33,994 nt of DNA from a virus (lineage: Duplodnaviria > Heunggongvirae > Uroviricota > Caudoviricetes), in the IMG/VR virus record IMGVR_UViG_2802429241_000004; one strand, 5' to 3'. The notes below the pieces were generated by a model that was not told where the DNA came from, did no database searches, and saw only the letters and a program-made list of their open reading frames with translations. Below are positions 1 to 33,994 of the stretch, one piece after another (within the stretch, counting starts at the first letter, position 1; each line of letters begins with the position of its first letter). A program made the translations under genes and the position numbers.

Positions 1-1362
1 ATGTTTAAACCGGAACTCCTTTCCCCGGCGGGAACGCTGAAAAATATGCGTTACGCTTTCGCTTATGGCGCAGATGCTGTTTATGCGGGGCAACCGCGTT
101 ACTCCCTGCGTGTGCGCAACAACGAATTTAACCACGAAAATCTCCAGCTCGGCATCAATGAAGCCCACGCGCTGGGGAAAAAGTTTTATGTCGTGGTCAA
201 CATTGCGCCACACAATGCCAAGCTAAAAACCTTTATCCGTGATCTGAAACCGGTGGTGGAAATGGGGCCGGACGCACTGATTATGTCCGATCCGGGGCTG
301 ATTATGCTGGTGCGTGAACACTTCCCTGAAATGCCGATCCACCTTTCCGTGCAGGCCAACGCCGTAAACTGGGCGACGGTGAAATTCTGGCAGCAAATGG
401 GGTTGACCCGCGTGATCCTCTCCCGCGAGCTGTCGCTGGAAGAGATTGAAGAGATCCGCAATCAGGTTCCGGATATGGAGCTTGAAATCTTCGTTCACGG
501 CGCGCTGTGCATGGCCTACTCCGGCCGCTGCCTGCTCTCTGGCTACATCAACAAACGCGATCCAAACCAGGGCACCTGCACCAACGCCTGCCGTTGGGAG
601 TACAACGTGCAGGAAGGGAAAGAAGATGACGTTGGCAACATCGTACACAAATACGAGCCGATTCCGGTGCAAAACGTCGAGCCGACGCTGGGTATCGGTG
701 CGCCAACCGACAAAGTGTTTATGATCGAAGAAGCCCAGCGCCCGGGCGAGTATATGACCGCGTTTGAAGATGAGCACGGCACTTACATCATGAACTCGAA
801 AGATCTGCGCGCCATCGCCCACGTTGAACGCCTGACCAAAATGGGCGTGCATTCGCTGAAAATCGAAGGCCGCACTAAATCTTTCTACTATTGTGCACGT
901 ACCGCGCAGGTTTATCGTAAAGCTATCGATGACGCCGCTGCGGGCAAACCGTTCGACACCAGCCTGCTGGAAACACTGGAAGGCCTGGCGCATCGTGGTT
1001 ACACCGAAGGTTTCCTGCGTCGTCATACTCACGACGATTACCAGAACTACGAATACGGTTATTCCGTTTCTGACCGCCAGCAGTTTGTTGGAGAGTTTAC
1101 CGGTGAGCGTAAAGGCTCTCTGGCAGCCGTAGCGGTGAAAAATAAATTCTCCGTTGGCGACAGCCTGGAACTGATGACGCCACAGGGCAATATCAACTTT
1201 ACCCTTGAGCACATGGAAAACGCCAAAGGTGAAGCGATGCCGGTCGCGCCTGGCGATGGCTATACCGTGTGGCTCCCGGTTCCGCAGGATCTCGAGCTGA
1301 ATTACGCACTGCTGATGCGTAATTTCTCCGGGGAAACCACGCGTAACCCGCACGGTAAGTGA
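1..1362 (+). CDS. yegQ: U32-family peptidase-like protein YegQ (tRNA hydroxylation protein TrhP), complete 453 aa
   Basis: ORF starts at window base 1 with MFKPELLSPAGTLKNMRYAFAYGADAVYAGQPRY, which I recognise as E. coli YegQ; contains the Cys-rich U32 signature (EIFVHGALCMAYSGRCLLSGY). Confidence 0.9.
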   Translation: MFKPELLSPAGTLKNMRYAFAYGADAVYAGQPRYSLRVRNNEFNHENLQLGINEAHALGKKFYVVVNIAPHNAKLKTFIRDLKPVVEMGPDALIMSDPGLIMLVREHFPEMPIHLSVQANAVNWATVKFWQQMGLTRVILSRELSLEEIEEIRNQVPDMELEIFVHGALCMAYSGRCLLSGYINKRDPNQGTCTNACRWEYNVQEGKEDDVGNIVHKYEPIPVQNVEPTLGIGAPTDKVFMIEEAQRPGEYMTAFEDEHGTYIMNSKDLRAIAHVERLTKMGVHSLKIEGRTKSFYYCARTAQVYRKAIDDAAAGKPFDTSLLETLEGLAHRGYTEGFLRRHTHDDYQNYEYGYSVSDRQQFVGEFTGERKGSLAAVAVKNKFSVGDSLELMTPQGNINFTLEHMENAKGEAMPVAPGDGYTVWLPVPQDLELNYALLMRNFSGETTRNPHGK

Positions 1363-1446: not shown

Positions 1447-1533
1447 GCTGAAAAACATAACCCATAAAATGCTAGCTGTACCAGGAACCACCTCCTTAGC
1501 CTGTGTAATCTCCCTTACACGGGCTTATTTTTT
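1447..1533 (+). ncRNA. cyaR: CyaR (RyeE) small regulatory RNA, about 87 nt, with intrinsic terminator (stem 1499-1524, U-tract 1528-1533)
   Basis: Sequence GCTGAAAAACATAACCCATAAAATGCTAGCTGTACCAGGAACCACCTCCTTAGCCTGTGTAATCTCCCTTACACGGGCTTATTTTTT matches my recollection of E. coli CyaR; it lies in the expected place downstream of yegQ and ends in a hairpin plus T6. Confidence 0.7.
1507..1533. other. P2-type attachment site core (attR copy), overlapping the cyaR terminator
   Basis: AATCTCCCTTACACGGGCTTATTTTTT is the reverse complement of the 27-nt P2 att core as I recall it (AAAAAATAAGCCCGTGTAAGGGAGATT); it sits exactly at the host/prophage junction next to ogr. Confidence 0.55.
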
Positions 1534-1597
1534 ACATACAACAAATTGAAATAAAAGGATTTATTTCTGGTCACGTCCACACATTGACCACATCGAC

Positions 1598-1621
1598 AAA
1601 AAAGCCCCTCGACTGAGGGGC
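1598..1621 (-). terminator. intrinsic terminator downstream of ogr (GCCCCTC-gact-GAGGGGC followed by T6 on the minus strand)
   Basis: Perfect 7-bp GC-rich stem at 1604-1621 with the A6 run at 1598-1603 (T6 on the minus strand) immediately after the ogr stop. Confidence 0.6.
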
Positions 1622-1634
1622 TTCCTGTTTGTAA

Positions 1635-1853
1635 TTACATCCACATAATTTGCTGCCCTGACGGCAACGGGTGCGGCCTTACGGCGTGGACTTCTCCCGG
1701 CTTCACGATGTATCGCTGTACCGACTCATAAGTGATGAACGTGGCGCTGCAATTCACGTTCTGGCACTGGTGATAACGCTCTTTTGTCGTGTCAGTGATA
1801 TAGCGGCTTGTACGCGCATGTGCGGCATGCTGGCATAAAGGACAATGAAACAT
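1635..1853 (-). CDS. ogr: late transcription activator Ogr (zinc-finger), 72 aa
   Basis: Internal Met of the 93-aa ORF gives MFHCPLCQHAAHARTSRYITDTTKERYHQCQNVNCSATF, the Ogr Cys4 zinc-finger protein; the longer N-terminal extension is unlikely. Confidence 0.85.
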   Translation of the reverse strand: MFHCPLCQHAAHARTSRYITDTTKERYHQCQNVNCSATFITYESVQRYIVKPGEVHAVRPHPLPSGQQIMWM

Positions 1854-3098: not shown

Positions 3099-3577
3099 TA
3101 TCCCGCCCCCGTCATACCCGTGAATTTAGTCGCCATACTGCCAGCCTTACCGATGAGCGATTCCGCCTGTTTACCGATATCGCCATAAAGCGCGGCCAGT
3201 GATTCATCAACGCGGGTGAGCGACAGCGTAAAATCAATTTTTCGGGGTGTGCCGTCTGCAAAGAAAATACTCCCTGTTTCACTCACCCTGCTGATGACAT
3301 ACATGCCGTAAATCATGCCGGTGCCATCCAGCAACGGCCACGCCCGGCCTTCCTCAGCCATCAGCCTGAGCGTGGTCATCGTCAGCTTGCCGCCGGTCAG
3401 TTCGGGATAAAGCACACCGGCAAGCGTGATGTTTTCCTCACCCACACCGAGAAACTGGTAGGCCTCCTGTTTACCGATACGGGAATTTGACGGCCAGCGA
3501 TAATCTGATTCACGCTGCATGGTCTGGTGTGGCAGCGTCTGGCGCATAAAAACAAACATACCTAACGCGAGCATCAT
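3098..3577 (-). CDS. U: tail protein U (159 aa)
   Basis: Size and position match P2 gpU; stop overlaps the D start. Confidence 0.8.
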   Translation of the reverse strand: MMLALGMFVFMRQTLPHQTMQRESDYRWPSNSRIGKQEAYQFLGVGEENITLAGVLYPELTGGKLTMTTLRLMAEEGRAWPLLDGTGMIYGMYVISRVSETGSIFFADGTPRKIDFTLSLTRVDESLAALYGDIGKQAESLIGKAGSMATKFTGMTGAG

Positions 3578-3591
3578 TTTTCGTCACCTCC

Positions 3592-6039
3592 TTAACCGTC
3601 ATGCATCATGCTGGCACGGGCGCGCGCACGTTTATCCCGCTCGTATTTTTCGAGCGCATCCTGTAACTGGCGGTCAAGCTGTGTCCCCGGCGCAGTACCA
3701 CCCGTCAGGCTGATGTGATATTCGTTTTTACTCTGGTCTACATAAGAGCGGCCAGCCGGTGCCGTGACCGGCTGATAAGCCTGATAGCCTGCATAAGAGC
3801 TGGTCGCCGGAATATAACCACCGGTGCCATACGTGGCGGCATGAGTTCTGGCGGCGGTCTGGTCAAGTGTGTCTGACTCTTTGTTGATAACACCGAGTTT
3901 TTCCAGTACCCAGTCAATGCCGCTGCGCAGTTTGTTGAACGCATTAAGCGGCAGCATCAGCGCGTCAGCCAGTGCCAGCCCGAACAGGACGCCCGTGTCA
4001 CGGCAACGGTTCAGGGTGTCCTGGGTGGCTTTGACCGGGGCAATCAGGTTTTTAAACCACTGCCACGCGGCCTGTAACTTTTCGCCCAGCCAGTCAAACA
4101 CCGGCTTAAGTGGCGTGAACAGTTCCCCCACAGGCGCAAATGCCGCTTTCAGCCCTTCTACCACACCGCCAAAGAATGCGCTGACAGGCTCCCAGTATTT
4201 ACGGATAAGTAACGCCCCGGCGACAATGGCGGCCACCACGGCCACAACCGGCCAGCTAATCGCCCCGATGGCCGTCATAACAGCACTGCCAACCGTCGTG
4301 AAGATTGCACCCATTGCGCCTGCTGCCGCGATGATGGCATTGATGCCGGTGATAACCGGCCAGGCTACGAGGCCAATGGCACCGATGACACCAATCAGTG
4401 CCAGTGCACCACCGACAATGATGCCGATGGTTGACGCCAGTGATTTGTTTTTCTGGATCCAGCCGTCGAGTTTTAACACATACTTTGTGGCCGTCTGCGT
4501 GAGCTTACGCAGTGCGCCTTCCTGCTGGTCAAACAGGTCAGTCCCCACAGCCTCATAAGCGGACTGAAACTCCTTAAAGTCACCGCCGAGGTTGTCCTGC
4601 ATGATTTTAACCAGCTCTTCCGTTTTACCGTCCGAGGCTTTCAGCGTGGCGGTCAGCTTATCCAGTTTTCCGCTTGCTGCCGCTGCCAGTAAAACGTTCG
4701 CTGATTTCAGGGCTTCCTCACCAAAAATGGTTTTAAGGTATTCCCCCTTCTGAGACGTTCCCAGCTTGTGTTTATCAAAGCTGGCCTGAATCTCTTTCAG
4801 AATGGTGAACAACGGACGCATATTTCCCTTTTTGTCCGAGGTTTTAACGCCAAGCTCTTTGAGTGCATCCCATGCTTTTCCAGTCGGTGCCTGTAATCGG
4901 GTGACAACGGCACTACTACCCGTACCCGCCATTGACCCCCTGATGTTATTGTCATGCAGCACACCTGTCATGGCCGCTGCCTGCTCAAGACTTACGTCTG
5001 CCGTCCTCGCGACCGGCCCGAGGTAAGTCAGTGCATCACTGAGTCCCTGAAAATCAGCCGCCGACTTATTCATCGTTGCAGACAACACGTCGCCCACATG
5101 GCTGACATCATCATTTGACAGTTGAAAGGATGCCTTAGTCCCCAGCAACAGTTGCGCGTTTTCTTCCATCGACCGCTGATTCGCCAGTGCCATATTCAGC
5201 GTGACCGGCGTTGCCGCCTGAATAGCCGCAGCATCTCCACCCGCTTTCGCAATGATAATCTGCGCACCGGCCGCATCATCCGCCGAGGCGGCGGTATTAT
5301 CGCCGAGCTGGCGCGCCTGCTTGCGGAGCGCGGCCATTTCGGCAGAGTCTTTTGCCACTCCGAGCACGGCCTGTAATTCTGAGTTTTTCTGCGCAAACTC
5401 ATAACCGGGCATCAGCAGCTTAACACCGGCCATCGTTCCCGCCGCCGCAATCCCCACACCGGCAGCGCCCACTGAGGCCATATTTCCGGCCAGTTCCTTT
5501 CCGGCCTGATAACGCTGTTTTACTGCATTAAGTTTTGCCTGTTGCGCACTGACACGCGCCAGCGCGTCGCGCTGACGGTTAAGTTGTGCGGTGGTTTCAC
5601 TGATACGGTTTTTCAGTCCCTGCTCATCATGTGCAAGATTGCGGGTATTAATTCCCACAGCGGCCAGTTCCCGCTGCTGGCGTTTAACGGAGTCTGTCAG
5701 GCGGTTATATTTCGCCTGTAAGTCCTCCGCCGCACGCTTTGCGGATTCCAGCACTTTCGCCTGAGCACGGGTCGGACGTTCGGTGTTTTTAAACTGTGTG
5801 GCAAGGGCTTCGGCTTCCTGCCGAGCCTTTTCAAGTGCATGACCAGTCACGGCGAGCTGTGCACTGGTCTTGCGAAATCCCTCAATACGGGATGCCTGAC
5901 CGTTCAGCTCGCGCAGTGATTTTTGTGTTTCCCGGATATCCCCCGACAGCGATTTGCTCGCTGTACGGATGGATTTAAACGGGCGGGATGCCTGGTCAAC
6001 AGCCCTGAGCAATACCTGTAATTTTACATTGTTACTCAT
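3592..6039 (-). CDS. T: tail tape measure protein T (815 aa)
   Basis: Long Ala/Gly-rich coiled-coil protein with central hydrophobic glycine-zipper segments, located after E/E' as in P2. Confidence 0.85.
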   Translation of the reverse strand: MSNNVKLQVLLRAVDQASRPFKSIRTASKSLSGDIRETQKSLRELNGQASRIEGFRKTSAQLAVTGHALEKARQEAEALATQFKNTERPTRAQAKVLESAKRAAEDLQAKYNRLTDSVKRQQRELAAVGINTRNLAHDEQGLKNRISETTAQLNRQRDALARVSAQQAKLNAVKQRYQAGKELAGNMASVGAAGVGIAAAGTMAGVKLLMPGYEFAQKNSELQAVLGVAKDSAEMAALRKQARQLGDNTAASADDAAGAQIIIAKAGGDAAAIQAATPVTLNMALANQRSMEENAQLLLGTKASFQLSNDDVSHVGDVLSATMNKSAADFQGLSDALTYLGPVARTADVSLEQAAAMTGVLHDNNIRGSMAGTGSSAVVTRLQAPTGKAWDALKELGVKTSDKKGNMRPLFTILKEIQASFDKHKLGTSQKGEYLKTIFGEEALKSANVLLAAAASGKLDKLTATLKASDGKTEELVKIMQDNLGGDFKEFQSAYEAVGTDLFDQQEGALRKLTQTATKYVLKLDGWIQKNKSLASTIGIIVGGALALIGVIGAIGLVAWPVITGINAIIAAAGAMGAIFTTVGSAVMTAIGAISWPVVAVVAAIVAGALLIRKYWEPVSAFFGGVVEGLKAAFAPVGELFTPLKPVFDWLGEKLQAAWQWFKNLIAPVKATQDTLNRCRDTGVLFGLALADALMLPLNAFNKLRSGIDWVLEKLGVINKESDTLDQTAARTHAATYGTGGYIPATSSYAGYQAYQPVTAPAGRSYVDQSKNEYHISLTGGTAPGTQLDRQLQDALEKYERDKRARARASMMHDG

Positions 6040-8671: not shown

Positions 8672-9751
8672 TTAATCTGAGTCCATTTTCCCAAACTCTG
8701 TCAGGCCGAAAACGGAGCTACCAGAAACATGAGCTTGTAAGCCCGCTTCCTGCATTTCACTCAATTCAACTTCCTGGCTATCCTCTAATCCGATAGAGAA
8801 CATGGGATAGGCCCAGTTCCAATTCGGATCAGGAACCAAACTATTATTCTCTATCTTGAAAAAGCTGACCATGAGATGATGCCTTCCCTGTATCGCCTCT
8901 TCATCATTGATGTTGACCAGTACACCAAAGTGCTTGTAGCCGGCTTGTCCATTCTCGAACATTTTTATCTTGGTGCCGTTTCTGAACATCCAAAAAGAAT
9001 GATTTCCAGTGGAATCAGCGACCTGCAAGTTATCTTCGTCAATTTCCCAATTAAGATATTGTTTGATATCAGACTTTGGTTTGAGTTTTTCGTCATTACT
9101 AAACCATTGTATTGCCGGAAGTGGAAGGTGAAGACCTTCCGGCTGGGGAGGCTGACCTGCAGCAATGGAATGCATGATCTCTGTCATTGATGGAAGCCCC
9201 ATCAAATGCCATACATCATGGATATCCTTTTTAAGTATAAGAAGCCCTTTGGATACACCATCCGCGTAAGTTGACTTTAAGCGGACTAGTATGTCCTTGT
9301 TACCATCTTTGTCGAGGTCTTCAATGTTTACTGAAGAAGCCACAACCTCGTCGTCCCCTGCGTCTGGGATGATTGCCCAATACCCAATATCGTAGAATCC
9401 AGGTCTGCCAACCACCTTATCTATCAAACTCTGTCCAGAGGGCTCGAAGACCATCAGGAAACGGCTAAGGGCACCATTTGTGCTCACAGCTCTTCCGTAG
9501 ACTACAACGGAGTTTGAGGTGCTTAGATCGAGAGACTCGCTAGCCACTGAGTCAAACGCCACTGAGTCCAAATGTGTGGCAAGCTGCTGCTGGATGCACT
9601 CCCGAGCCATTTCAACTAATTTTTCGCGAACATCAGCAGATCGTATTGGCTGTGAAGTGAAATGGAAAAGCCCTACTGTAGCCGCTATGCCTATTATTCC
9701 CGAAATAACGGTACTTAGAACCTGCTCCTTTACCACTTTCACAACTTTCAT
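8672..9751 (-). CDS. hypothetical membrane-anchored protein (N-terminal TM helix, large C-terminal domain) at the P2 Z/fun variable locus; candidate superinfection-exclusion or defence protein
   Basis: Long ORF in an AT-rich island between FI and G. ATG at 9749-9751 preceded by purine-rich GAAG..AAGAAG; the ORF track's upstream start at 9781 is a GTG. Basic N-terminus then hydrophobic helix VLSTVISGIIGIAATVGLF; DLDKDGNKD loop; no known catalytic motif recognised. Confidence 0.6.
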   Translation of the reverse strand: MKVVKVVKEQVLSTVISGIIGIAATVGLFHFTSQPIRSADVREKLVEMARECIQQQLATHLDSVAFDSVASESLDLSTSNSVVVYGRAVSTNGALSRFLMVFEPSGQSLIDKVVGRPGFYDIGYWAIIPDAGDDEVVASSVNIEDLDKDGNKDILVRLKSTYADGVSKGLLILKKDIHDVWHLMGLPSMTEIMHSIAAGQPPQPEGLHLPLPAIQWFSNDEKLKPKSDIKQYLNWEIDEDNLQVADSTGNHSFWMFRNGTKIKMFENGQAGYKHFGVLVNINDEEAIQGRHHLMVSFFKIENNSLVPDPNWNWAYPMFSIGLEDSQEVELSEMQEAGLQAHVSGSSVFGLTEFGKMDSD

Positions 9752-10079
9752 CAATAGCTTCTTCAACTTCACTTCAGGCACCTAAATACTATTAAACTTG
9801 TCATGGGAAAATCCGATTATTATTGTAGAGAACAACAAAAACTGGCCTCGATTTTAGAGTTTTTCCAGTATCTATTTTCCGACTCGTTCGGCGGTAATCC
9901 ACCGTTATATTCATGAGGCCGGGGTGCACTATAATATTCAACTATATACTCTGTTTGTAGTGGCACATTAAATTTGGTGACAGATATGCATCACGTCCGC
10001 TCCTAGCACAGAGCGGACAGTCAGATTAGGTTTTACTCTGTGCCATAGATGAGTAATCTCACACCAGAGCTAATACGAT

Positions 10080-23918: not shown

Positions 23919-24952
23919 TGAGCAAGAAAAAAGGGAAAACACCGCGACCTGCGGCAAAAACAATCACCGCCAGCGCCCCGAAAATGGAGGCATTCACCTT
24001 TGGCGAGCCGGTGCCGGTACTCGACCGCCGTGACATTCTGGATTATGTCGAGTGCATCAGTAACGGCAGATGGTATGAGCCACCGGTCAGCTTTACCGGT
24101 CTGGCAAAAAGCCTGCGTGCTGCCGTGCATCACAGCTCACCGATTTACGTCAAACGTAATATTCTGGCCTCGACATTTATCCCGCATCCGTGGCTTTCCC
24201 AGCAGGATTTCAGCCGCTTTGTGCTGGATTTTCTGGTGTTCGGTAATGCGTTTCTGGAAAAGCGTTACAGCACCACCGGTAAGGTCATCAGACTGGAAAC
24301 CTCACCGGCAAAATATACCCGCCGTGGCGTGGAGGAGGATGTTTACTGGTGGGTGCCGTCCTTCAACGAGCCGACAGCCTTCACGCCCGGCTCCGTGTTT
24401 CACCTGCTGGAGCCGGATATTAATCAGGAGCTGTACGGCCTGCCGGAATATCTCAGCGCCCTTAACTCTGCCTGGCTGAATGAGTCGGCCACGCTGTTCC
24501 GCCGCAAGTATTACGAAAACGGCGCTCATGCCGGATACATTATGTACGTCACCGATGCCGTGCAGGATCGCAACGATATCGAAATGCTTCGCGAAAACAT
24601 GGTCAAGTCGAAAGGCCGCAACAACTTTAAAAATCTGTTTCTCTATGCCCCACAGGGGAAAGCCGACGGTATTAAAATTATCCCCCTCAGTGAAGTGGCA
24701 ACGAAGGACGATTTTTTTAATATCAAAAAAGCCAGCGCCGCTGACCTGCTGGACGCGCACCGCATCCCCTTTCAGTTGATGGGCGGCAAGCCGGAGAACG
24801 TCGGATCGCTGGGTGATATTGAGAAAGTGGCAAAGGTCTTTGTCCGCAATGAGCTTATCCCGTTACAGGACAGGATTCGGGAAATAAACGACTGGCTCGG
24901 TCAGGAGGTCATCCGCTTTAAAAACTACTCACTGGACACTGACAACGGCTGA
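23918..24952 (+). CDS. Q: portal protein Q
   Basis: 344-aa protein starting MSKKKGKTPRPAAKT, overlapping the P stop (ATGA), last gene before cos. Confidence 0.85.
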   Translation: MSKKKGKTPRPAAKTITASAPKMEAFTFGEPVPVLDRRDILDYVECISNGRWYEPPVSFTGLAKSLRAAVHHSSPIYVKRNILASTFIPHPWLSQQDFSRFVLDFLVFGNAFLEKRYSTTGKVIRLETSPAKYTRRGVEEDVYWWVPSFNEPTAFTPGSVFHLLEPDINQELYGLPEYLSALNSAWLNESATLFRRKYYENGAHAGYIMYVTDAVQDRNDIEMLRENMVKSKGRNNFKNLFLYAPQGKADGIKIIPLSEVATKDDFFNIKKASAADLLDAHRIPFQLMGGKPENVGSLGDIEKVAKVFVRNELIPLQDRIREINDWLGQEVIRFKNYSLDTDNG

Positions 24953-25289: not shown

Positions 25290-26090
25290 CTATTTCATCA
25301 GTCCTATAAAAGCTGCTGTCATGCTACCCAATGCACCAATAGCAGCAAATAACGTTGCCCAAAACATGCTTTTTTGGCTACGAATATTCTCATTATATCG
25401 TTGTTCTTCATTATTGAAGTGATTTAACGTATTAATTGCTTTTCCAGTGGGCTTATAACCATCTCGAGTCTTTGAAATGTCCCCACTCTCTACAAGGGAA
25501 TCCAGACATAAGCGAAGTTCTTTTATGAGTCGAGAATAATCATCATGGTAGATCCATAAACGTCCTGCCACATCATTCATAATTAGAGTCTCACTGAATG
25601 GTTTTTCCCCTTGCTGCTCTCGATAAATTCTGACAATTGCAGCCAATACCGTCATTACATCGGTTATCTCCTGCTTGCGTTGTCGATACAAATACTTCTC
25701 ACGACTTAGCTTTTTATTTTGACGATTCGCTATTCTTCTAAATCTAAGCACATTAAAAAAAGATAAGTCGTCCAATGAGTCAAACTTCAATTCATGCGCA
25801 TGATAATAATAAATTCCAGAAAAGGAATTTGATGTAAGTCGTTCTGGTTTAAGAATTGTATCAATATTGAAAGTTTTATTCTGATGATTCCACTTCTTAA
25901 CCTTTATAATTCCGTTTGAATAACTATCAAAAAGATAGTCATTACCCTCGTCATCCTTAATGTAAACGGAATACATATCGTAATGAATGGCACTCTCATA
26001 CATTAAACTAATTTTGCCATTTTCAGGAGTCTTCTTTGACTCAAAAACTTTTAGAAACTTTACAACATCAACTTTATTTTTATACCTCAT
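25290..26090 (-). CDS. hypothetical tail-anchored membrane protein (266 aa, single C-terminal TM helix); candidate effector of the RT system
   Basis: AT-rich ORF directly downstream of the RT gene on the same strand; C-terminus MFWATLFAAIGALGSMTAAFIGLMK is a predicted TM helix; N-terminal domain has no motif I recognise. Confidence 0.6.
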   Translation of the reverse strand: MRYKNKVDVVKFLKVFESKKTPENGKISLMYESAIHYDMYSVYIKDDEGNDYLFDSYSNGIIKVKKWNHQNKTFNIDTILKPERLTSNSFSGIYYYHAHELKFDSLDDLSFFNVLRFRRIANRQNKKLSREKYLYRQRKQEITDVMTVLAAIVRIYREQQGEKPFSETLIMNDVAGRLWIYHDDYSRLIKELRLCLDSLVESGDISKTRDGYKPTGKAINTLNHFNNEEQRYNENIRSQKSMFWATLFAAIGALGSMTAAFIGLMK

Positions 26091-26255: not shown

Positions 26256-27206
26256 TTAAACCGATGTATTTGCTTTCAACGTCAATACTTTCGATCTGTA
26301 ACGTTTTTCAATAACCCCCATTGAATATAAACGACCAAATAATTTCTTTGCTGTTCTTGTATCTTTAGCTTGTTCTACATCTTTTATTATTTTCCAAAGC
26401 TCTATTTCTCTAGCCATAAGATAATGCTGTTCGTTCCTAACCTTTAAGCTATCCCCAAATACTATAACTCCTGTCACCAGTTTAGGCTTATCCCCAGCAT
26501 ATAATTTCGTTTTAGTTGGATGCATCACGTGTCCATGCTTATTAATAATCTTACGAATCACGCTGCAAAACAATCGATTTACATTATCTCCAGAAAAAGT
26601 AAGATCATCGACATAAACTGTCATTTTCACACGAAACTTCTCACAAAGTTGATTCATTTCATCAAACATTCTGGAATTTGCAAAATATGCTAATGGCATA
26701 CTAATCCGACTACCCGTTGGCAATCGTTCATGACAGGTACATATATGAGATAAAATATCAGCCACATCTGGCGACATTTTCATTATTGAGAAAAAGAAAG
26801 AAAATATCATTTCTCTTGTTGTTGACGGAAAAAAAGATTTAATATCTGTAGTCATCAACTTCTGATGATTGAGATGTGCTTTAGCATTTGTTATGTTAGA
26901 GCAACTTTTTTTACCAGAGTGCAAATACTCTGGCATAGCTATACGCAATAATAAACTCGCAATACGTGTATGCACTACATCTAATTTTTCTAAAGGCTTT
27001 TGTATTTTCCGTATTTTATTTTTTTTAGAAAGCTGTTCAAAAATAGAGTAATTACCCTCATCCCTCTTCAAAGCTGATAGATCATTGATACTAACGCAGA
27101 GCAAGCTAGCCAACTTTTTTTTACTTTTAAGTTTATAAAGTGGCGAATCCGTAATAGGATAAGATTTATTTTTAGTTGAAACCTTCAGTTTAATCCTTTT
27201 TTTCAT
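26256..27206 (-). CDS. retron-type reverse transcriptase (316 aa)
   Basis: RT motifs read directly from the translation: NAKAH (NAxxH), DIKSFFPS, LPTGSRISMPLAYFA (QG..SP block), YVDD catalytic box, LVTGVIV (retron VTG). Block order parallels the Ec86 RT as I recall it. Confidence 0.8.
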   Translation of the reverse strand: MKKRIKLKVSTKNKSYPITDSPLYKLKSKKKLASLLCVSINDLSALKRDEGNYSIFEQLSKKNKIRKIQKPLEKLDVVHTRIASLLLRIAMPEYLHSGKKSCSNITNAKAHLNHQKLMTTDIKSFFPSTTREMIFSFFFSIMKMSPDVADILSHICTCHERLPTGSRISMPLAYFANSRMFDEMNQLCEKFRVKMTVYVDDLTFSGDNVNRLFCSVIRKIINKHGHVMHPTKTKLYAGDKPKLVTGVIVFGDSLKVRNEQHYLMAREIELWKIIKDVEQAKDTRTAKKLFGRLYSMGVIEKRYRSKVLTLKANTSV

Positions 27207-27504
27207 TTCTTTTACTTACCCACTCTAGTATATCCAGAACTTTCCCTGCCAGTTTTAAACGTAAACTTTTGGATAACCGTCCTTGTGTCCCTAATGATTC
27301 TGAAAAAAAGACTAAAGAGGATACTGGCATGTCGAAATGGGAAGCATAACGCTGTAAAATATCAATCGACGGCACCCATAGTCCGCTTTCAATCTCTACT
27401 ATTCTGCTTTTTGGAATACCTAAAGATGATGATAAGTCAACTATTGATTCTTTATGGTATTGCCTTATTAAACGAAGGGCTTTATGCAACATAGGCAACT
27501 CCAT
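27190..27504 (-). CDS. XRE/Cro-type helix-turn-helix protein (104 aa)
   Basis: Classic HTH segment ESIVDLSSSLGIPKSRIVEIESGLWVPSIDILQRYASHFDMP; its stop overlaps the RT start by 17 nt. Confidence 0.65.
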   Translation of the reverse strand: MELPMLHKALRLIRQYHKESIVDLSSSLGIPKSRIVEIESGLWVPSIDILQRYASHFDMPVSSLVFFSESLGTQGRLSKSLRLKLAGKVLDILEWVSKRNEKKD

Positions 27505-27528: not shown

Positions 27529-27684
27529 TTACTCATCTCCCCCTTCAAAGAAGTCAACTGCGCGAGTGATCCAATAAAGTAGTCTAATAAGCCACTTAAT
27601 TACACCCCAAGCGTTAGGAGTCTTCTTTTTCCGGTTTAACTTGTTTTGCGCCTGCTGTTCGTTGGTTACTTTATCATTTTTCAT
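27529..27684 (-). CDS. small hypothetical protein (51 aa) with amphipathic or hydrophobic core
   Basis: Internal ATG at 27682-27684 preceded by a consensus AAGGAG Shine-Dalgarno with 6-nt spacer; product MKNDKVTNEQQAQNKLNRKKKTPNAWGVIKWLIRLLYWITRAVDFFEGGDE. The 97-aa upstream extension is less likely. Confidence 0.4.
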   Translation of the reverse strand: MKNDKVTNEQQAQNKLNRKKKTPNAWGVIKWLIRLLYWITRAVDFFEGGDE

Positions 27685-27786
27685 GACCTGCTCCTTATGT
27701 CCACGGTGTGCAAACGATATGTCTGCTCCAACACCATGGCTCGCCCTCATAAGGATGAGATTGAACAGCACCAGCTCCCTGCTCCA

Positions 27787-27813
27787 CGAACCCTTTGTCG
27801 CCCAAAGGGTTCG
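27787..27813 (-). other. stable hairpin (11-bp perfect stem CGAACCCTTTG / CAAAGGGTTCG, 5-nt loop) within a locally GC-richer structured segment; possible ncRNA element
   Basis: Perfect inverted repeat read directly from the sequence; no flanking T-tract on either strand, so it is not a simple terminator. Confidence 0.35.
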
Positions 27814-28126
27814 AATACCCATACGCTATACCGCTTGAATCAGAGACTCCTGTCGCTGACAGAGGCGTTGCGCGGGGTAAATGTTAGAAAGCATTAGCTT
27901 TCCACGGGCAATAAATACCCAATTGATGGCGATTTATCTCACTAACTAACCAATGATTGAATCATACCAAGTAAACCGTTGTATTTGATCTCTCCTTATA
28001 TAATTTTTTGTTATTAATCAATATAAATAAATAACAAAAAGAAATATAGCTAATTTTCATCCGTCTCATCACAATAAATATCAACAAATCAAGAATATCG
28101 TTTGATTATCTAGTCTTTCCAATTCA

Positions 28127-32980: not shown

Positions 32981-33994
32981 ATGGCAATCAAAAAACTCGA
33001 TGATGGTCGATATGAAGTGGACATCCGCCCTACTGGACGTAATGGAAAACGCATCCGTAGGAAGTTTGATAAGAAAAGCGAAGCTGTCGCTTTCGAAAAA
33101 TACACGTTGTACAACCACCACAATAAAGAATGGCTATCAAAACCAACAGACAAACGACGTCTGTCGGAACTGACACAGATCTGGTGGGATTTAAAGGGTA
33201 AACACGAAGAGCATGGGAAATCTAATCTTGGAAAAATTGAAATCTTCACAAAAATAACGAATGACCCATGCGCATTTCAAATCACGAAATCCCTTATCAG
33301 CCAGTACTGCGCCACCCGAAGAAGTCAGGGTATTAAACCTTCGAGTATCAATCGTGATTTAACATGTATTAGCGGCATGTTTACAGCCCTGATTGAAGCG
33401 GAGTTATTCTTTGGTGAGCACCCTATCAGAGGGACAAAGAGGCTTAAGGAGGAAAAACCAGAAACAGGCTATCTCACACAGGAAGAAATTGCCTTACTGC
33501 TTGCAGCACTTGACGGCGACAATAAAAAGATTGCGATTCTTTGCCTGAGTACAGGAGCACGTTGGGGAGAAGCAGCTCGTTTGAAAGCAGAAAATATCAT
33601 CCATAACCGCGTCACGTTTGTTAAAACGAAAACAAACAAACCACGCACCGTCCCGATCTCAGAGGCTGTTGCCAAAATGATCGCGGATAACAAACGAGGT
33701 TTTTTATTCCCTGATGCTGATTACCCTCGCTTCAGACGAACAATGAAAGCAATAAAACCGGATTTGCCAACGGGGCAAGCCACACATGCACTAAGGCACA
33801 GCTTCGCCACTCATTTCATGATTAATGGAGGAAGTATTATCACGCTACAACGGATACTAGGTCACACGCGGATTGAGCAAACTATGGTTTACGCTCATTT
33901 TGCGCCAGAGTACCTTCAGGACGCCATTTCTCTTAATCCGCTAAGAGGTGGTACTGAGGCCGAGAGTGTCCACACAGTGTCCACAGTAGAGTAA
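32981..33994 (+). CDS. int: tyrosine integrase (337 aa)
   Basis: Begins MAIKKLDDGRYEVDIRPTGRNGKRIRRKF as P2 Int; catalytic motifs HALRHSFATH and MVYAHF; stop codon is the last triplet of the window. Confidence 0.9.
   Translation: MAIKKLDDGRYEVDIRPTGRNGKRIRRKFDKKSEAVAFEKYTLYNHHNKEWLSKPTDKRRLSELTQIWWDLKGKHEEHGKSNLGKIEIFTKITNDPCAFQITKSLISQYCATRRSQGIKPSSINRDLTCISGMFTALIEAELFFGEHPIRGTKRLKEEKPETGYLTQEEIALLLAALDGDNKKIAILCLSTGARWGEAARLKAENIIHNRVTFVKTKTNKPRTVPISEAVAKMIADNKRGFLFPDADYPRFRRTMKAIKPDLPTGQATHALRHSFATHFMINGGSIITLQRILGHTRIEQTMVYAHFAPEYLQDAISLNPLRGGTEAESVHTVSTVE

Follow-up and report, generated by a model that had tools for sequence, protein, structure and literature searches.

The window examined here, a stretch of 33,994 nucleotides analysed as a whole, opens with the host gene yegQ (trhP), which occupies positions 1..1362 on the plus strand, was recognized as an ORF with an annotated E. 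coli homologue, and is present as its E. marmotae allele. It lies 5' of cyaR (ryeE), an sRNA gene found intact at 1447..1533 on the plus strand from its Rfam match, its mapping to K-12 and its fold. A preliminary description of this DNA had read the sequence at 1447-1533 as CyaR, and that reading holds. A cmscan search of the whole window at the gathering threshold returned a single Rfam match, RF00112 (CyaR_RyeE) at 1445-1530 on the plus strand, which spans the full model (1-85 of 85) with 100.7 bits against a cut-off of 47 (E = 3.3e-19). K-12 cyaR (b4438, NC_000913.3 2167114-2167200) maps base for base onto 1447-1533, and the alignment over the RNA is 100% identical to E. coli cyaR. CyaR RNAs are typically transcribed under cAMP-CRP control and act on targets such as ompX. 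The promoter region of the gene carries five differences from E. coli (window positions 1365, 1388, 1416, 1437 and 1441), although the RNA is identical; the putative -10 hexamer would be TATCAT in E. coli and TATTAT in the window.

The 3' end of cyaR is an intrinsic terminator at 1498..1533 on the plus strand, with an 11-bp stem (1498-1508 paired with 1515-1525), a 6-nt loop (1509-1514) and the tail UAUUUUUU at 1526-1533, a U-tailed 3' end of the Hfq-binding type. On its own the hairpin has a folding energy of -15.9 kcal/mol (z -7.05), and a pattern scan calls a terminator here as well. Within this terminator, at 1507-1533, lies the 27-bp P2 att core AATCTCCCTTACACGGGCTTATTTTTT, which matches the core of the P2 record AF063097 (24356-24382, annotated 'attP' and 'Int attP core') at 27 of 27 positions and marks the cyaR/ogr-side junction, attR in the P2 convention. 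The core occurs once in the window, and none of 100 shuffles matches it even at three mismatches. It begins with the last 2 nt of the terminator's 5' stem and continues through the loop and the complete 3' stem to the end of the U tract. The statements that the terminator hairpin and U tract coincide with the core, and that the core at 1507-1533 forms the 3' end of the sRNA, are thus borne out by its position inside 1498-1533 and by its identity to the annotated P2 attP. The resemblance between P2 attP and cyaR does not extend leftward beyond the core, where 2557 of 5000 shuffled sequences scored at least as high, and we therefore reject the idea that attP carries additional cyaR sequence, as occurs in some phages that target tRNA genes.

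Downstream of the core, the window and P2 are collinear without gaps in an alignment to AF063097, and the elements of the P arm could be placed by correspondence with that record. An IHF binding region is assigned to 1532..1565 (AF063097 protein_bind IHF 24324-24357), and an Int arm-type binding region to 1569..1596 (protein_bind Int 'P arm' 24293-24320), where the P2 and window sequences are the same. The latter contains the direct repeats GTCCACA (1575-1581) and GACCACA (1586-1592), spaced 11 bp apart, which had been proposed as Int arm-type sites (at 1574-1593); their location inside the annotated Int P-arm site of P2 agrees with that proposal. Next to the P arm is the Rho-independent terminator of ogr and the F operon (1601..1624, minus strand; AF063097 terminator 24265-24288), whose hairpin folds at -19.4 kcal/mol (z -4.3) and which gives a scan match at 1602-1623. 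At the other end of the window, a second Int arm-type binding region, that of the P' arm, falls within the 3' end of int at 33960..33986 (protein_bind Int 'P' arm' 24470-24496). It contains two exact 10-nt direct repeats of AGTGTCCACA at 33965-33974 and 33976-33985, again 11 bp apart. The assignments of the arm-type Int sites and the IHF site are predictions from sequence identity to the protein_bind stretches of AF063097.

Between these two arms the window holds a run of P2-type genes. The first prophage gene is ogr (1635..1853, minus strand), which encodes the late-gene activator (Pfam Ogr_Delta, 2e-21) and corresponds to P2 ogr. The last is int (32981..33994, plus strand), which encodes a tyrosine integrase with Pfam Int_N and Phage_integrase matches and whose stop codon ends at the final base of the window; the protein is identical to P2 Int at 336 of 337 positions (99.7%). 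The ORFs are full length and follow each other in the uninterrupted order ogr, D, U, T ... Q, P, then A, cox, C and int, with cox recognized by its Phage_Cox match. The late region has 96.7% identity over 88% of its length to Peduovirus genomes and is collinear with isolated phages. A type VI retron (26256-27504, minus strand) lies in the variable region that separates the portal/terminase genes from gene A; it consists of a reverse transcriptase (26256-27206, minus strand; PADLOC RT_VI, 353 bits) and the partner protein HTH_VI (27190-27504, minus strand; 106 bits). Neither Pfam nor PADLOC recognizes the ORFs beside it at 25290-26090 and 27529-27822. The same is true of a 369-aa ORF between the tail sheath and tail fibre genes (8672-9781, minus strand), which presumably occupies the position of the Z/fun variable region of P2.

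The host of this prophage is E. marmotae, since the YegQ protein of the window is found unchanged in E. marmotae CP025979.1 (and in other genomes) and the yegQ-cyaR DNA has at most 94.9% nucleotide identity to any of 5424 E. coli genomes. We conclude that the window almost certainly contains a complete prophage of the P2 type (Peduovirus), about 32.6 kb long and integrated by Int in the 3' end of cyaR in an E. marmotae chromosome through a 27-bp shared core, and no evidence contradicting P2-type integration in cyaR was met in the analysis.

The window stops at the stop codon of int, and a second core was not found inside it even at three mismatches. The int-side junction was observed outside the window itself, in a public contig (PTSM01000001.1, here L038) that was located through an exact look-up of the rarer retron reverse transcriptase of the prophage and matches the final 17,739 bases of the window with 0 mismatches. 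In this contig int is followed by 77 nt of P' arm, then by the core AATCTCCCTTACACGGGCTTATTTTTT at 78-104 nt beyond int, and then by TGTACCACGCTTTCATCC... and yegS. A second core copy beyond the integrase, which the preliminary description had called for, is therefore present in DNA identical to that of the window, with the yegS flank after it. The P' arm of the same contig also contains, 8-62 nt past the int stop and beyond the end of the window (L038 about 3130-3205, minus strand), a hairpin with a 15-bp stem, GGGCTTTCAGTGGTA...TACCGTTGAAAGCCC; it lies within the annotated Cox-binding region, and no T-run stands behind it.

Unoccupied yegQ-cyaR loci, the other comparison that had been suggested, were found at six E. 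marmotae sites (L020-L023, L025 and L027). Each has the order yegQ, cyaR, a single core, TGTACCACGCTTTCATCC... and yegS, so that the same DNA follows cyaR in the empty sites and the int-side core in the lysogen. Homology of the window to these sites stops at the core (1507-1533). In a four-way alignment of the empty site, P2 attP, the window junction and the int-side junction, the 27-bp core is identical in all four, the junctions are clean, and the flanks match the pattern produced by recombination of attP with attB; the E. coli equivalents agree. One of the empty sites (L023, about 4515-4525) has a natural variant of the core in which TTACGCAGGC replaces TTACACGGGC. The variant swaps U-G and U-A pairs in the terminator stem with pairing kept, and differs from the P2 attP core by two mismatches.

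The integrase is widespread. The exact Int protein is found in 19,988 blocks, and all ten of the contexts listed are from E. coli; in those ten the core starts 78 nt past the int stop and is followed by yegR and yegS, and none of the ten is identical to the window. A search of species-representative genomes with the 3' end of int gave one match, in E. ruysiae (L009), whose prophage is 98.5% identical to the window; the stretch available there begins 10 nt past the int stop and yielded no junction.

As a tyrosine recombinase, P2 Int recognizes both core-type and arm-type sites, IHF bends the P arm, and Cox directs excision. Based on this biology, integration would proceed as follows. The phage attP and the bacterial attB would have in common the 27-bp core, which in CyaR forms the terminator's loop, 3' stem and U tract. 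Int would bind the core together with the arm-type repeats, GTCCACA and GACCACA in the P arm by ogr and the two copies of TGTCCACA in the P' arm within int, and, aided by IHF, would swap strands inside the core. The cyaR-side junction would thereby remake an unchanged cyaR, with a terminator predicted to work, and this regeneration is explained by the identity of the core in phage and host. The other copy of the core would be moved beyond int, away from its 5' stem partner. In agreement with this, the terminator hairpin does not fold at the int-side core copy, because P' arm sequence replaces the 5' partner of the stem. The action of Int and IHF at these particular sites, the excision directed by Cox and the phage origin of the 3' part of the terminator are all inferred from established P2 biology.

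How much of the lysogen's terminator would be phage-derived depends on the points of strand exchange, which cannot be read from two identical cores. The bases that follow the core differ between the two junctions. On the cyaR side the core ends in the phage type, 6 T followed by A as in P2 attP, and on the int side in the host type, 7 T followed by G as in the empty E. marmotae sites. The shift from 7 T to 6 T is the sole change beside the RNA, and on comparison of the sequences a functional effect is not expected, since CyaR of E. coli K-12 also has a U tract of 6 T, as in the lysogen.

This uncertainty leaves room for a reading in which the exchange occurs at the very 3' border of the core. 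The insertion would then be effectively 3' of cyaR, the terminator of the lysogen would consist entirely of host DNA, and the phage would contribute nothing to the RNA. Two identical cores give no crossover position, and the only junction-specific difference is the base after the core (6 T/A versus 7 T/G); these two points speak for such an exchange. Tyrosine recombinases, however, swap strands across a short overlap flanked by two inverted core-type sites, and this overlap falls within a core of this size rather than at its border. A natural variant in E. coli REL606 also speaks against the 3' edge, since its int-side core has AATAT, confined to the int-proximal end, whereas its cyaR-side core is standard, a pattern consistent with a crossover to the right of core position 4. 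Wherever the exchange takes place, the core is part of the annotated RNA, and we regard an exchange at the 3' edge as quite unlikely. Alternatively, the gene might belong to the phage, in that cyaR would be a phage-carried sRNA rather than the host target. The direct abutment of cyaR on the prophage end would be compatible with this, but the region was found in 5424 of the 5426 E. coli genomes, mostly without an adjoining P arm and ogr, P2 attP has only the 27-bp core in common with cyaR, and the gene is found in the empty E. marmotae sites, which refute a phage-borne cyaR; we give this reading virtually no credence.

It could also be argued that the element is a decayed remnant like ogr-D' of K-12 and not a complete prophage, given that remnants are common at this site, as illustrated by K-12 itself, by REL606 (which has truncated D and tail-tube genes) and by E. 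coli 30EVA2 (which has an IS1-mediated deletion). Such decay is hard to reconcile with the unbroken P2 gene order from ogr to int and its full-length ORFs, with two intact cores and an Int that is 99.7% identical to that of P2, or with a late region collinear with isolated Peduovirus phages, and a remnant is accordingly an unlikely description of this element. The preferred reading remains a complete P2-type prophage that entered the cyaR terminator of its host through the shared core.

The comparison of flanks disclosed a feature of E. coli that is separate from the integration itself. Past the core, E. coli has the flank ATGCATAAGCCCTATCCCTGGTCACCGTCTTCCATTGACCACATCGA, both in empty sites and at the int-side junction, or a longer allele, (A/G)T(A/G)CATAAACCATAG(A/G)GACGGATTGATCCCAGGTGACCGTCTTCCATTGACCACATCGA. 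Both alleles align with the phage P arm ...GGATTTATTTCTGGTCACGTCCACACATTGACCACATCGA at scores of 16-21.5, compared with shuffle means of 2.2-2.7, and none of 2000 shuffles scored as well. The E. marmotae flank has no similarity to the phage P arm by the same comparison (395 of 2000 shuffles score as well). When the E. coli flank (L002 3236-3300; L005 and L006 about 3297-3360) is set against window positions 1534-1596, CTGGTCAC and CATTGACCACATCGA are common to both at equal spacing, and the longer allele also has GGATTGAT in common with the P arm. Right behind the arm-like stretch (L002 3284-3293) there is a second AATCTCCCTT, identical to the core's first 10 nt and to the conserved loop of the CyaR terminator, and after it a hairpin with an 11-bp stem, AGCACGATGCC...GGCATCGTGCT.

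Starting with the arm-like stretch, E. coli has an AT-rich island of about 810 bp in which yegR is encoded on the minus strand (L002 3236-4045). This island lies exactly between the cyaR core and the yegS promoter (the E. marmotae counterpart is L020 4534-4620), and homology to the yegS flank of E. marmotae resumes after a degenerate T-run, GACTTTTTATCCTCCGA in E. coli versus GGCTTATTTTTTTGTACCACG. Of 5426 E. coli genomes, 5334 have the island, whereas E. marmotae and one further yegR-less lineage (L032) are without it. Identity to the reference copy is only 90-95% for most of the E. coli copies, an unusual degree of diversity for this species.

A reading that we hold tentatively, and to which we would give not quite even weight, is that the 'empty' site of E. 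coli is not pristine: the 47-59 nt past its core may be the decayed P arm of a P2-type phage, left by an older P2-like element that inserted in cyaR in an ancestor of E. coli and then decayed, and leading into the yegR island, with present-day P2 re-using the surviving core beside the arm of its predecessor. The transfer may instead have run the other way, with the phage acquiring its arm from the host flank. If the fossil arm is real, its surviving arm-type repeat GACCACA could still bind Int and thus influence integration and excision in E. coli, but not in E. marmotae. The process would be the one seen in ogr-D' of K-12, where it is at an earlier stage, and this side observation may be new; our literature search found no discussion of yegR as a prophage relic. 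That yegR is itself a phage gene was considered and is unsupported, as a tblastn search of 50,697 phage records gave two records only, both of which include host flank. Strain 30EVA2, which is without most of the yegR island, was considered as an ancestral empty state and ruled out, because its condition reflects an IS1-mediated deletion from inside a P2-type prophage. In this strain (L042) IS1 joins a truncated P2-type portal gene to the region upstream of yegS, and int, the int-side core and yegR are deleted.

The insertion described here uses the classical attachment site of P2, which has already been described, and the E. marmotae host makes it a new instance rather than a new kind. The 27-bp core and the K-12 remnant were reportedly described by the laboratory of Haggard-Ljungquist in 1989-1992, and locI of E. 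coli C in the P2 literature of those years is, we assume, the cyaR/ryeE site. The window agrees with P2 and its locI site in the core, the integrase (336 of 337 residues), the P arm with its IHF site and two arm-type repeats, the ogr terminator, the P' arm in int and the neighbouring yegQ. It differs in that the host is E. marmotae and not E. coli, in that the core is followed by the promoter region of yegS, the yegR island being absent, and in that the empty site of E. marmotae has 7 T where cyaR of the lysogen has 6 T. What the case leaves unchanged is the present knowledge of P2 and of CyaR; what it offers is a clean textbook example of a temperate phage that lands in the terminator of a regulatory RNA without damaging the gene, together with an unusually clean empty site in E. 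marmotae.

The site also explains why P2 DNA is frequently found behind cyaR. A P arm and ogr adjoin cyaR in 1167 of 5426 E. coli genomes, and 763 of the 5426 carry an int of the window type. Table 2 of Archer et al. (PMC3032704) lists three P2-type elements as inserted in 'cyaR RNA', namely Wphi2 (P2) of E. coli W, ogr-D' of K-12 and P2*B of E. coli B, and a passage in Bobay et al. (PMC3603311), which cites Wassarman et al. 2001, refers to ryeE in E. coli as 'previously known to be targeted by phages'. In K-12 the order is cyaR, ogrK and yegZ (a D' pseudogene), annotated as 'cryptic prophage PR-X', with the same core, which confirms the earlier remark that K-12 has a P2 remnant (ogrK) at this yegQ-proximal site. 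The cyaR-side junction of this remnant is that of the window, namely cyaR, core, P arm, ogr and the start of D. The difference is that in K-12 all sequence between a point in D and a point in the int-side core is gone, so that only 'TACACGGGCTTATTTTTTT' of that core remains, while the window has the whole prophage. REL606 (L005 3277-3304, L041) and K-12 (L004 2812-2830) have in common the post-core P-arm allele ACGCGTAATACAATG and a 7-T int-side core, and by virtue of these shared features ogr-D' of K-12 and the defective P2*B of E. coli B appear to represent stages of a single ancestral prophage. The int-side core of REL606 has AATAT in place of AATCT.

In a wider context, the arrangement resembles that of prophages in the 3' ends of tRNA, tmRNA and sRNA genes, such as P4 in leuX and the Salmonella phages at ryeB/sdsR, in which attP copies the 3' end of the target and the gene stays intact. 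Genes for hairpin-forming RNAs have been discussed as phage targets (PMC3603311), and the sdsR case has been reported (PMC3333887). The present site differs from targets of the tRNA type in the nature of the shared segment, which here is 27 bp long and belongs to the terminator of an Hfq-dependent sRNA rather than to the acceptor or T arm of a tRNA.
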